A stretch of DNA of 64,000 nucleotides from Escherichia coli (GCF_003334355.1 NZ_QOWP01000010.1); one strand, 5' to 3'. Shown: positions 2,043 to 55,692, counted from the first letter of the stretch. Numbers and translations are program-made. The notes: generated by a model not told the origin, from the sequence alone.

Positions 2043-2130
2043 TGGCGGAAGCGCAGAGATTCGAACTCTGGAACCCTTTCGGGTCGCCGGTTTTCAAGAC
2101 CGGTGCCTTCAACCGCTCGGCCACACTTCC
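2043..2130 (-). tRNA. serT: tRNA-Ser (anticodon UGA), 88 nt with long variable arm and encoded CCA
   Basis: Reverse complement GGAAGTGTGGCCGAGCGGTTGAAGGCACCGGTCTTGAAAACCGGCGACCCGAAAGGGTTCCAGAGTTCGAATCTCTGCGCTTCCGCCA; anticodon loop CTTGAAA gives anticodon TGA; class II tRNA. Confidence 0.93.
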
Positions 2131-19109: not shown

Positions 19110-19750
19110 GGTGCGGGTTTAAGAAACGTCATTTCTACGGGAATAACCCCTGCGCCTAACATTTGCCGACTTTGACGAACCTGGCCAGTAGCCGAATCGA
19201 CCCAGAATGTGTTTTGCCACTGTTTTTCTGGCCGCGTGGAAGTCACCTCTTCCTGCCAGACATTACACAGCACATTACGACCCGCAATATTCAGCGTCTC
19301 TAATCCAGCAAAGGAAAAAGTAGAACTCAGGGTCGCAGAGCGAAAATGGTTGTCTTCACTCCAGAGAATATCGCGCGTCCAGCGGCTGCCATCTTTTATT
19401 GCCAGCGCGTTACGCAGAGGGTCCTGCCCGGAATTTGTCACTTCCAGCAGATTATTATTAAGTTTGACGGTTTTTAAAAGACGTCCATTGTGGGTAACCA
19501 GCATGGCGTTATCCTGGGATAACCATTTGCTTTGTTCTTGTTCTATATATCCCAGTACCACAAAGATTCGTTGCCCTTCATTAAGGCGTAAATACATAGT
19601 GGAATAAGGCAACGCCTGGATCTGCTGATCCGCTACGGTGATATCCTGATTATCGAAAAGGCTGGCGCGAAATGTATCGACCATACTTTGCTGGCTGTGC
19701 GTACATCCCGCAAGAAATAGTGCGAAAATCGATAAAATAAGAGGGCGCAC
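19106..19750 (-). CDS. gfcB: group 4 capsule lipoprotein GfcB (YmcC), 214 aa
   Basis: Full ORF MRPLILSIFALFLAGCTHS... (lipobox LAGC). Confidence 0.9.
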   Translation of the reverse strand: MRPLILSIFALFLAGCTHSQQSMVDTFRASLFDNQDITVADQQIQALPYSTMYLRLNEGQRIFVVLGYIEQEQSKWLSQDNAMLVTHNGRLLKTVKLNNNLLEVTNSGQDPLRNALAIKDGSRWTRDILWSEDNHFRSATLSSTFSFAGLETLNIAGRNVLCNVWQEEVTSTRPEKQWQNTFWVDSATGQVRQSRQMLGAGVIPVEMTFLKPAP

Positions 19751-19856
19751 CTTTAATCCTTGAAAGGTTAATTAAAAAAATGCAAATCTCTAAAGCCCGG
19801 TACGAATATCGCAACCGGGTATCATTTAACTTTAATTTCGACGCGTTAAAGCAGTA

Positions 19857-20165
19857 TTAGCGTGTAGTGGACGTGGTGGTTGAGGTGTTATGAGAACCGC
19901 CATCGCCACTGTCATTTGCTGCAACAACTGCCAACGTCGCCACACCAACAGCCGTTGCCACACCGACAACTGTCGCCGTGCCGACAGCGCCAGCAGCCAC
20001 GCCACCAGTGGTAGTAGCAGCAGTCGTGGTTGCGCCGGTAGTGGTCGTTGTGGTGCCAGTAGTACCCGTCGTTGCATCGGTCCCGTTTGTTGCTTCAGGG
20101 GCAGCAAACGCAGCTGGCGTCGTCAACATGAAGGCCATAAGGATTGCAGAAAGCTTGTGTTTCAT
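19857..20165 (-). CDS. gfcA: Thr-rich small secreted/membrane protein GfcA (YmcD), about 101 aa
   Basis: ORF 19857..20183; MKHKLSAILMAFMLTTPAAFA signal then threonine-rich low-complexity region; start at 20165. Confidence 0.85.
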   Translation of the reverse strand: MKHKLSAILMAFMLTTPAAFAAPEATNGTDATTGTTGTTTTTTGATTTAATTTGGVAAGAVGTATVVGVATAVGVATLAVVAANDSGDGGSHNTSTTTSTTR

Positions 20166-20606
20166 AACTTTTCCTTTATTCATCGCATGGACAATACGTA
20201 CGCTTGAGATCAGGATTGTCTACTTTGAGTATAACATCCTTGTGAAATCTCCCTTTCCTCATACCGCTTGCACTATATACTGCGGGTAGGAAAGGCGCGC
20301 AGAGGGAAATATAAGATTGTTAACTATCCCCCTCTGGAAATACGACTTGTGAGCATAAGATAAATCTTAGCAAAATACGAATTAAAGATAAGGAAATTGT
20401 TACGAAAGCTATTAATTATTGTTGGTAATATAGTTTTAAGTGGTACTATAACTGGCTGTTAAATGGCATTTATAACTATTAGGTGCAGAGATATTCGCTT
20501 AAATGGATTAGTTTCTTTGTGGAAAAGTAACTGATGTTATAATGTATGATGTTGACTATTGCACTATTCCAATAAAACCAGTCAGCTTTAAACAAGCAGC
20601 GTCATA

Positions 20607-20819
20607 TTAAGAGAGATAAACATTTGCCGCTGTTGGTCCTCGCAGGCCATTTACGCGGCAAAATTCCACACGTAATCCTGGTATAAGCACTTCTGCGTCG
20701 CGGGGAGTGAATGCGGAAATATGGACCTGAACTTCTTTACGACCGTCGGAGGGGATAATGAATCCTTTGCCGCTTTTGCGATCAAAGGTTTTGACAATTC
20801 CTGTCATTTTACGGGACAA
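20607..20819 (-). CDS. cspH: CspA-family cold-shock-like protein CspH, 70 aa
   Basis: [40 protein letters not shown]... Confidence 0.9.
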
Positions 20820-21104
20820 ACAAATTCCTTACTGAAAATACTGCGCTGCACTATACGGGGTTAATAAAATAAAGCCAGCGATATTTAAGACCGCCGGACG
20901 GCTAAAATAAAATTTGCTTAATCTCAATTATCATGCGTTAATAGCTGCGTCGGTTTGAAAGACAGACAGCATACAAAGTAGTTTACTAAAGCAGTTCTCA
21001 TTATCAGGCATTATCCCCTTCTTTTGAGTCTCTCTCCTGAACACTAAGTAGTTTCTGTATTAAAGCCCTGTTTGCCGAAAGGCCCAAAATGAAGGAAGTA
21101 AAAT

Positions 21105-21317
21105 ATGTCTAATAAAATGACTGGTTTAGTAAAATGGTTTAACGCAGATAAAGGTTTTGGCTTTATCACTCCTGATGATGGCAGCAAAGACGTTTTCGTC
21201 CATTTCACCGCCATCCAGAGCAATGAATTCCGCACGCTGAACGAAAATCAGAAAGTTGAATTTTCTATTGAGCAGGGGCAACGTGGCCCCGCGGCAGCGA
21301 ACGTTGTTACGCTCTAA
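21105..21317 (+). CDS. cspG: cold shock protein CspG, 70 aa
   Basis: [41 protein letters not shown]..., strong RBS, long AT-rich 5' leader upstream. Confidence 0.92.
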
Positions 21318-21516
21318 GGTTGCCATTATTACTCAACATCTCCATTTCCGCTGTCCATGTTGTCATGGTTCACAGTACCGCACATCGGCATTCGATGTGA
21401 CGGAGCGAAACCCTTTGGGCGCTAAGTGTATTTTTTGTAAATCGACGATGATCACCTTTGATAACGTCGCGCTGCAAATACGCACTGACCATGCGCCGCT
21501 GGATTTCACAAAATAA
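21256..21516 (+). CDS. ymcF: small Cys-rich (CPCC...CIFC zinc-ribbon-like) protein immediately downstream of cspG; true start uncertain, probably downstream of the cspG stop; ymcF assignment tentative
   Basis: Track ORF 21256..21516 ends [57 protein letters not shown]; position downstream of a csp gene matches the described small protein YmcF; no in-frame ATG between the cspG stop and the Cys motifs. Confidence 0.4.
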
Positions 21517-54627: not shown

Positions 54628-55692
54628 ATGGTAACGTCCTGTACTGGACATGTTTTAGATAATCAACGCGCCACCACTCGCGGAGTTTTCTCCTCCGGTA
54701 GTCATCTCGTCACTTTGCATTTTCAACCTCATCCTTTCTTTTCATGTGTTACCGACGCCGTAAACGGTGCGCGTAGCCGTTTTTCGGCATTTTATCCAAA
54801 AGCAAACTATGGCTTACAAGGAAGCCAACCCTCTGATGTTCGTGCGCATAATCGCGCTGCCAACGGCGCGTGTGATGAATACAAACAACTCAAGGTGCTC
54901 TCCATGGGAAGACAAAAAGCAGTGATCAAAGCTCGTCGCGAGGCAAAACGTGTGCTGAGACGGGATTCGCGCAGCCATAAGCAGCGTGAAGAAGAATCGG
55001 TCACCTCGCTTGTGCAGATGGGCGGCGTAGAAGCCATTGGTATGGCCCGCGACAGTCGCGATACTTCGCCCATCCTCGCGCGAAATGAAGCGCAATTGCA
55101 CTATCTGAAGGCTATTGAGAGTAAGCAGCTGATATTCGCCACGGGCGAAGCCGGGTGCGGAAAAACCTGGATCAGCGCAGCAAAAGCGGCAGAGGCCCTG
55201 ATACATAAGGATGTCGACAGGATTATCGTCACCCGTCCAGTTCTGCAAGCCGATGAAGATCTTGGCTTCTTACCTGGAGATATCGCAGAAAAGTTTGCTC
55301 CCTATTTTCGCCCGGTCTACGACGTGCTGGTCCGGCGCTTAGGGGCTTCCTTTATGCAGTACTGCCTGCGACCGGAAATAGGGAAGGTGGAAATTGCGCC
55401 GTTCGCCTATATGCGTGGACGTACCTTTGAAAATGCAGTCGTCATTCTTGACGAGGCGCAGAATGTGACTGCCGCGCAAATGAAAATGTTTTTAACCCGC
55501 CTCGGGGAGAACGTGACGGTTATCGTCAACGGTGATATCACGCAATGCGATTTGCCTCGCGGCGTGTGCTCCGGATTAAGTGACGCGCTGGAACGTTTCG
55601 AAGAAGATGAAATGGTTGGGATCGTCCGGTTCGGTAAAGAGGACTGCGTACGTTCGGCACTTTGCCAACGTACGCTGCATGCCTACAGTTAA
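54628..55692 (+). CDS. phoH: phosphate-starvation-inducible ATPase PhoH (Walker A GEAGCGKT), 354 aa
   Basis: Full ORF MVTSCTGHVLDNQRATTRGVFSSGSHLVTLHF... Confidence 0.9.
   Translation: MVTSCTGHVLDNQRATTRGVFSSGSHLVTLHFQPHPFFSCVTDAVNGARSRFSAFYPKANYGLQGSQPSDVRAHNRAANGACDEYKQLKVLSMGRQKAVIKARREAKRVLRRDSRSHKQREEESVTSLVQMGGVEAIGMARDSRDTSPILARNEAQLHYLKAIESKQLIFATGEAGCGKTWISAAKAAEALIHKDVDRIIVTRPVLQADEDLGFLPGDIAEKFAPYFRPVYDVLVRRLGASFMQYCLRPEIGKVEIAPFAYMRGRTFENAVVILDEAQNVTAAQMKMFLTRLGENVTVIVNGDITQCDLPRGVCSGLSDALERFEEDEMVGIVRFGKEDCVRSALCQRTLHAYS

Follow-up and report, generated by a model that had tools for sequence, protein, structure and literature searches.

The operon for the group 4 (O-antigen) capsule of Escherichia coli opens with gfcA, a small gene whose product is unusually rich in threonine, which raises the questions of what such a protein does and whether the DNA that encodes it is an unstable repeat. 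The gene is required for this capsule; its deletion abolishes the capsule of EPEC, and pgfcA alone complements the defect (PMC3853201). The threonine content (30%) and the length of 101 amino acids have been described, as have the interaction of GfcB, GfcC and GfcD at the outer membrane and the LolA-like fold of GfcB, and the same authors speculate that O-antigen might be added to GfcA and that GfcD might export it (PMC8592465). In GfcD, the C-terminal barrel follows a 14-strand topology minus one strand, which leaves a lateral gap (PMC11494523). Gene and compositional oddity are therefore already known, and both the threonine richness and the glycosylation idea are already published; minor details are new here, namely an allele with a private GCT duplication, a catalogue of alleles that gained or lost a repeat unit, a layout common to the whole family and a hairpin after the gene. 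The copy analyzed lies in a 64,000-nucleotide stretch of E. coli DNA (the window). A preliminary description of this DNA had called it gfcA and seen in it a mucin-like peptide, probably O-glycosylated or surface-associated, encoded by slippage-prone, triplet-repetitive DNA. The reading preferred here, to which we assign a probability of roughly 60%, is that gfcA encodes a small Sec-exported, largely disordered protein of small residues that belongs to a GfcA/YjbE family, acts as a partner or cargo of GfcB, GfcC and GfcD, and undergoes occasional in-frame length changes of 3-30 nt.

The coding sequence occupies positions 19857..20165 on the minus strand and consists of 102 codons plus a stop, in agreement with the ORF list, the codon table and RefSeq. 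RefSeq annotation of near-identical alleles puts the start at the ATG at 20165 (-), and a RefSeq CDS of 306 nt is found at the same position in five further loci (L001-L004 and L011); an alternative in-frame ATG at 20183 (-) would prepend MNKGKV to the protein. A putative Shine-Dalgarno-like AAGGA, read from the sequence, lies at 20172..20176 (-), 6 nt before the ATG at 20165. In four consecutive segments, the translation reads MKHKLSAILMAFMLTTPAAFA, APEATNGTDATTGTTGTTTTTTGATTTAATTT, GGVAAGAVGTATVVGVATAVGVATLAVVAA and NDSGDGGSHNTSTTTSTTR. E30D and an additional alanine are its sole differences from RefSeq WP_001295358.1, annotated as 'threonine-rich inner membrane protein GfcA'. GfcA of K-12, EPEC O127 and EHEC O157 (YmcD; WP_001295358.1, WP_001299283.1) represents the same gene at the same operon position, and the K-12-type protein is identical to the window protein at 100 of 101 aligned residues; unlike it, the window allele has 102 residues, carries a GCT duplication at Ala49-Ala50 together with E30D, and has no IS1 upstream. 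Downstream on the minus strand, the ORF list gives gfcB, gfcC, gfcD, gfcE (NF011658), etp (NF008486) and etk (NF007350), and the nearest complete genome annotates the stretch as etk-etp-gfcE-gfcD-gfcC-gfcB-gfcA-cspH, the closest 12-kb matches to the window being 99.9% identical. The gene thus lies on the same strand as, and immediately 5' of, gfcB/yjbF (PF11102), gfcC/yjbG (PF06251) and gfcD/yjbH (PF06082); PF11102 is present in P0033, a cluster representative 99% identical to the GfcB of the window. Positions 19857-20165 are gfcA, with which the group 4 capsule operon gfcABCDE-etp-etk begins, and the initial identification is borne out by operon order and by near-identity to the RefSeq protein.

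Between gfcA and cspH, the upstream region (20166-20606) contains no IS1, so that the upstream region of the operon is intact in the window; genomes of the K-12 lineage harbor IS1D there, with its transposase gene starting 89 nt from gfcA. A scan of 19700-20650 with promoter and terminator consensus models gave no sites. Around position 20345, four metagenomic E. coli loci (L025, L054, L056, L062) show a 23-nt deletion relative to the window, which may be a promoter-region polymorphism. Elsewhere in the window, five matches above the Rfam gathering score were recorded: a cspA thermoregulator (leader of cspG) at 20949-21371 (+), Ysr251 at 55494-55687 (-), naRNA4 at 32054-32132 (-), ES036 at 38009-38051 (-) and a tRNA at 2046-2130 (-).

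With 30 threonines, 21 alanines, 13 glycines and 9 valines among 102 residues (29% Thr), GfcA has the highest T+A+G+V fraction (0.69) of the 115 window ORFs of at least 80 aa, the next reaching 0.43. Beyond position 22, these four residues make up 81% of the remaining 80, so the layout first proposed for the protein, a signal peptide followed by T/A/G/V low complexity, holds. Four parts can be told apart. Residues 1-21 (20103..20165, -) form a predicted signal peptide with MKHK, a hydrophobic stretch and AFA, cut before AP; it was judged by eye from its basic n-region, hydrophobic h-region and AxA site, and the same layout recurs in 15/15 aligned members of the family. Residues 22-53 (20007..20102, -) constitute a threonine-rich low-complexity stretch that is variable and lineage-specific in the alignment, has the highest dN, and is the site of variants of +3, +18, +21, -15 and -30 nt. 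It is followed by a Gly/Ala/Val-rich hydrophobic core (residues 54-83; 19917..20006, -), conserved in the family alignment with low dN, and by a polar C-terminal tail, N-DSGDGG-SHN-TSTTTSTT-R plus stop (19857..19916, -), in which the alignment reveals a GDG motif and an oligo-Thr tail. Of 15 homologues, all retain the oligo-Thr tail and most have the GDG motif or something very like it, while D88, T96-T98 and T100 are invariant or nearly so.

This order of parts is not peculiar to E. coli. The gene just 5' of every gfcB/yjbF homologue examined encodes a protein of 80-122 aa with 62-80% T/S/A/G/V and the same sequence of signal peptide, variable small-residue region, G/A/V core, GDG-like acidic motif and oligo-Thr tail, the last usually ending in Arg or Gln; the window protein shares it, with the signal peptide assigned by eye. 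The operons stem from Escherichia sp., E. albertii, Cedecea, Citrobacter, Paramixta, Salmonella, Kluyvera and Siccibacter, and further ones with a small upstream protein were found in a gammaproteobacterial MAG, in E. coli itself (yjbEFGH) and in several metagenomic clades; 15 members from 12 operon types were aligned. The most distant homologue, L010:2545-2862 from the gammaproteobacterial MAG (GfcB 32% identical), keeps the signal peptide, the G/A/V core and a threonine-rich end; it contains an inserted Cys-containing segment, and its tail ends in ...TYTYAATLQ. The closest comparison is YjbE of E. coli and Salmonella ('exopolysaccharide production protein YjbE'), which as the first gene 5' of yjbF, yjbG and yjbH occupies the paralogous position and likewise has a signal peptide, a small-residue region, an AVGVALAA core, a GGGDGS motif, an oligo-Thr tail and a hairpin after the gene. 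It consists of 79-80% T/S/A/G/V, yet it differs from GfcA in being only 80 aa long, in being rich in Ser besides Thr (both 17-19%), in the absence of the threonine-rich insertion of about 20 residues and in a far less hydrophobic core (Kyte-Doolittle 1.24 vs 2.16). An IS1 that splits yjbE from yjbF increases colanic acid and sedimentation resistance, from which the authors infer Rcs activation (PMC8117528).

Relative to YjbE and most other members, E. coli GfcA has about 17-20 extra threonine-rich residues, and its long Thr stretch of about 30 residues is an expansion of the variable spacer in the Escherichia lineage. Against homologues, dN/dS amounts to 0.12-0.31, and against E. albertii the core and tail together have a dN of 0.03 at a dS of 0.55 vs a dN of 0.30 in the Thr region. 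Hence, gfcA is a real coding sequence under purifying selection, and judging from the alignment its conserved functional parts would be the core and the tail, the 'mucin-like' stretch being the least constrained. Homology searches recover little of this family. Pfam and NCBIfam scans of GfcA gave no model, a phmmer search of 1.84 billion representatives returned 14 matches, nearly all Escherichia fragments or frameshift products and YjbE not among them, and a word-indexed sequence search had a similar outcome; because such searches miss the GfcA/YjbE family, gene context is needed for its recognition.

The preferred reading, a partner or cargo of GfcBCD, draws on gene order and on what is known of these three proteins. 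In this reading, GfcA would have no enzymatic activity and would work beyond the cytoplasm, in large amounts, as a partner or cargo of the GfcB/C/D machinery at the outer membrane, for example as a carrier or anchor for the capsule polymer. Abundance is suggested by a GC-rich hairpin (CCCGGU..ACCGGG) followed by a U-rich stretch in the gfcA-gfcB spacer (19796..19819, -). A hairpin after the small gene and before gfcB/yjbF was present in 9/9 operons folded (besides the window, L012:22348-22371 and the spacers of L105, L106, L108, L010, L008, L009 and L082), which fits a small protein that is more plentiful than its partners. The hairpins of Paramixta, Salmonella and the MAG have the canonical stem and U-tract of a terminator. 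The fold of the E. coli hairpin is not significantly better than those of shuffled sequences (z = -1.4), and it was not called by the consensus terminator scan of 19700-20650; it is possibly a partial terminator. Together, the hairpins suggest attenuation that could allow GfcA to be made in excess of gfcBCD.

An alternative takes the database name at its word. Once its signal peptide has been cleaved, GfcA would then be a single-pass inner-membrane protein with a periplasmic Thr-rich N-terminus, a helix at about residues 56-83 and a cytoplasmic tail, working in that membrane with Wzx, Wzy and Etk, for instance by small-xxx-small helix packing. The RefSeq name 'inner membrane protein' agrees with this, as does the core itself, whose best 19-residue window (residues 64-82) has a Kyte-Doolittle value of 2.16, above the usual cut-off of 1.6, and which offers nine [GAS]xxx[GAS] motifs; AF2 places a helix at 60-84 both in GfcA alone and in a fusion with GfcD. 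Its confidence, however, is about 50 or lower in pLDDT. For GfcA alone, the mean pLDDT was 45, the helix at 60-84 (pLDDT ~50) was the only one, and the model was not usable for a fold search. Moreover, GfcA, but not YjbE, has a stretch of 19 or more residues hydrophobic enough to pass for a transmembrane segment: the YjbE cores of E. coli, Salmonella and Kluyvera reach only 1.14-1.24, so that an anchor is not a feature of the family. Nor does the tail appear to provide a positive-inside signal, as its single charge of this kind, the terminal Arg, is replaced by P, H or Q in relatives. Finally, the constant genomic partners are the outer-membrane and periplasmic GfcB, GfcC and GfcD, also in yjbEFGH operons without etk and wza. 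By comparison across the family, the 'inner membrane' label thus seems to be a prediction that does not generalize, and we regard an inner-membrane role as somewhat unlikely.

The second alternative was raised in the preliminary description and likewise in PMC8592465. It views GfcA as a mucin-like carrier whose threonines are O-glycosylated, possibly with O-antigen repeats, and GfcD as the exporter of the glycopeptide that would then form or anchor the capsule. A protein that is exported, disordered and 29% threonine invites this idea, and so does the oligo-Thr tail in every homologue; gfcA is required for the capsule (PMC3853201), whose anchor is still being sought, and GfcD has a lateral gate (PMC11494523). 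Exported and disordered Ser/Thr-rich regions of streptococcal membrane proteins are reported to be glycosylated (PMC12041528), and GfcA resembles these and the mucins in being exported, disordered and rich in hydroxy amino acids and in a length that evolves by gain and loss of repeats. Several features argue against such a role. The operon contains gfcB, gfcC, gfcD, gfcE, etp and etk only, with no gene for a glycosyltransferase or (O-)oligosaccharyltransferase, a statement confined to the operon, as the enzyme could be encoded elsewhere in the genome. Most members of the family do without the long Thr stretch, which is also under the weakest constraint. Mucins have Pro/Thr/Ser-rich tandem-repeat domains, whereas GfcA has a segment of about 30 residues with a single Pro in the mature part, no long tandem repeat beyond one imperfect 21-nt x 2.0 repeat and no associated glycosyltransferase. 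A glycosylated carrier of this type is unlikely.

A bolder version extends the carrier idea to the whole family and would make GfcA/YjbE the long-sought non-lipid anchor or primer of O-antigen (group 4) capsules and of the Yjb exopolysaccharide. Conceivably, the polysaccharide would be attached to the conserved oligo-Thr tail or to the Thr-rich spacer of an abundant exported peptide, and the LolA-like GfcB, together with GfcC, could pass the G/A/V core on to GfcD, whose 13-strand barrel is open laterally and would insert it into the outer membrane. An AF2 model of a GfcD-(GGGGS)6-GfcA fusion, based on a shallow paired alignment of 15 rows, addressed whether the 14th strand that this barrel lacks comes from GfcA. 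Here, the GfcD barrels formed (pLDDT 60-88), while GfcA remained an isolated helix at pLDDT 20-29 with no sign of docking; within the limits of this alignment depth, the model thus lends no support to the anchor or to the partner reading. We consider the proposal distinctly unlikely; if true, it would amount to a bacterial proteoglycan-like export pathway.

Turning from the protein to its DNA, the description of the gene as triplet-repetitive, with a run of acc/gcc/ggc-type codons, does not stand. Purines make up 85% of codon position 1 and C makes up 55% of position 2, but all four bases are well represented at position 3 (34% T, 27% C, 22% G and 17% A); the threonine codons comprise 10 ACG, 9 ACC, 7 ACT and 4 ACA. 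No perfect triplet tandem exceeds two units (6 nt), tandem tracts of whatever period reach at most 10 nt, and repeated k-mers are no longer than 8 nt. In 5,000 synonymous-codon shuffles the same repetitiveness was obtained, with 8 adjacent identical codons observed vs a mean of 6.5, a longest tract of 10 vs 10.9 nt and a longest repeated word of 8 vs 9.4 nt. Repeats are neither enriched nor purged, and a proneness to triplet slippage was overstated. The idea that the mixed codons reflect selection against repeats was dropped as well, since in repetitiveness the gene ranks near the middle of its shuffles. The DNA is of low complexity because few amino acids are used, and since the codons are mixed it is not a microsatellite; its period-3 signal is compositional. 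TRF finds a single imperfect repeat of 21 nt x 2.0 with 80% matches and a score of 54, located at 20023..20063 (-) and made up of T-T-G-T-T-T-T units, which is the substrate of +21 and +18 nt duplications in other strains. A second element, recognized from variant alignments (strain 1409, ABW_A19 and L074), is the 18-nt unit GGTGTGGCAACGGCTGTT (G-V-A-T-A-V) followed by a partial second copy at 19935..19964 (-).

The composition also leaves other frames open. Stop codons are few in 5/6 frames. Overlapping antisense ORFs (+) run from 19890-20207 (105 aa) and 19978-20289 (103 aa), together covering 19890..20289, and an alternative-frame ORF of 91 aa lies at 19832-20107 (-). The two antisense ORFs are the long spurious ones expected on the opposite strand; they are judged spurious, since no stop can arise by complementing an ACN, GCN, GGN or GTN codon. 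A shuffle-based count of stop-free frames was set aside, as the segment with its flanking stops was poorly matched to the data.

How the length of gfcA varies was followed in 5,426 complete E. coli genomes, about 3,600 of which carry the gene. There is no match at all to the region in 1,753 of the 5,426, and in some 100 further genomes the gene is truncated, for example by IS3 in strain TBE6. All full-length rows in two evenly spaced samples of the ranked matches (38/38 and 59/59, i.e. 97/97) have the canonical CDS of 306 nt, even at 93.5% identity. The window gfcA has 309 nt through a change of GCT to GCTGCT (20016..20021, -), a one-codon tandem duplication (Ala49-Ala50) that alignments indicate to be private to the window. 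Over 12 kb, the window differs from the closest genome by 8 substitutions and one indel, and the indel is this duplication. Among 3,579 complete genomes it was not found (none reached 99% identity with an 81-nt probe), nor was its combination with E30D, and it was not found among about 57 metagenomic E. coli loci either. Three gfcA alleles, with either start codon, had no exact match in a collection of 15 billion sequences.

Other changes in length do exist. In the Thr region, an allele of -15 nt occurs in 2 complete genomes, one of +18 nt in 5 genomes of an O169:H41 ETEC group and one of +21 nt in a single genome (RMDEC465); in the core, one GGTGTGGCAACGGCTGTT unit is lost in 1 genome (-18 nt; ABW_A19) and gained in 4 (+18 nt; strain 1409). 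These add up to at least 13 of 3,592 complete genomes (0.36%), a lower bound, as the census used targeted queries with metagenomic deletion alleles as probes; upper bounds are ~1% for changes of at least 15 nt (from identity bands) and ~3% for smaller ones (from sampling). All length variants in complete genomes are in frame. At the junctions, exactly one 18- or 21-nt unit has been gained or lost, or a deletion has occurred between ACCAC or ACCACT direct repeats, so that the variants arise via 18-/21-nt repeats or direct repeats of 5-8 nt and not via triplet slippage. Of the length variation predicted at the outset, existence is therefore confirmed by the alleles of +18, +18, +21, -15 and -18 nt and the +3 nt of the window, and lengths are not identical in all strains; the comparison across genomes also showed that such alleles are rare (13/3,592), that every sampled row is canonical (97/97) and that the mechanism, recombination or slippage at short imperfect repeats, differs from the one assumed. 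Within E. coli, changes in gfcA length are rare and filtered by selection.

A metagenome scan with a GfcB alignment returned mostly E. coli loci, which offered little diversity but served as a population sample, and a scan of genome contigs with a single GfcB gave 5 loci. In the metagenomic E. coli contigs, gfcA has 8 indels of at least 4 nt in 17.7 kb (0.45 per kb) compared with about 7 in 279 kb of neighboring coding DNA in the same contigs (~0.025 per kb), i. e. an ~18-fold higher density. Half of the gfcA indels are out of frame and 6/57 loci are frameshifted, several of these copies being on contigs at ~1.6-3x coverage, where some may be artefacts. Frameshifted gfcA reads on in an open frame, and the resulting chimeric ORFs of 98-109 aa that end in ...QQMTVAMAVLITPQPPRPLHANTALTRRN populate protein databases (P0008, P0011 and P0028; L050, L051, L056, L059, L065 and L073; compare the alternative frame at 19832-20107, -). 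The E. albertii homologue has 95-96 aa, and an enterobacterial clade with a GfcB of 63-65% identity has forms of 94, 98, 118 and 122 aa; in this clade, a 12-nt unit (T-T-T-G) is present at 2.5, 5.8 and 7.7 copies in the 98-, 118- and 122-aa proteins (L080:1333-1362, L097:2719-2788 and L091:2266-2364, respectively). From one lineage to another, repeat change is clearly how the Thr-rich spacer evolves.

It could be argued from the ~18-fold indel density, the 6/57 frameshifted loci and the 2.5 to 7.7 copies of the 12-nt unit that gfcA is a contingency locus whose repeats mutate at high frequency and thereby switch the capsule or vary a surface peptide. As in the phase-variable loci of Neisseria and Haemophilus, repeat-mediated indels occur and an alternative frame is open. 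Unlike these loci, gfcA has no perfect tract, its longest being 10 nt, and imperfect units of 12-21 nt at about two copies; its variation is rare and in frame. Frequent differences in repeat number, as expected of a contingency locus, are not seen, given 13/3,592 variant genomes; the length stays at 306 nt even where nucleotides diverge by 6.5%, at most ~1% of the 3,592 genomes show a change of 15 nt or more, all variants in complete genomes preserve the frame, and the frameshifted copies include those on contigs at ~1.6-3x coverage that may be errors. At the species level, this explanation is already largely refuted, and we hold it to be highly improbable. Least credible of all, and hardly to be reckoned with, is that the ORF yields no functional protein and the region serves gfcBCDE as a leader or regulatory RNA, as its extreme composition, its lack of a Pfam or NCBIfam model and its open alternative frames might be taken to say, against which stand a dN/dS far below 1, synonymous change being saturated between clades, the conservation of signal peptide, core and tail at the protein level in operons with unrelated DNA, the restriction of complete-genome length variants to in-frame changes and the complementation by gfcA in trans from a plasmid (PMC3853201).

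For capsule biology, these results concern a protein that EPEC needs for its O-antigen capsule and an operon, gfc, that Shigella sonnei needs for its own. They narrow the likely function of GfcA to the G/A/V core, the GDG motif and the oligo-Thr tail, and make the Thr stretch a dispensable-looking, lineage-specific spacer. For annotation, the antisense and alternative-frame ORFs can be treated as artefacts of codon composition, and frameshifted database entries of 98-109 aa as read-through into an open alternative frame. The natural alleles with one unit more or less in core or spacer could serve as ready-made variants for structure-function studies of GfcA.
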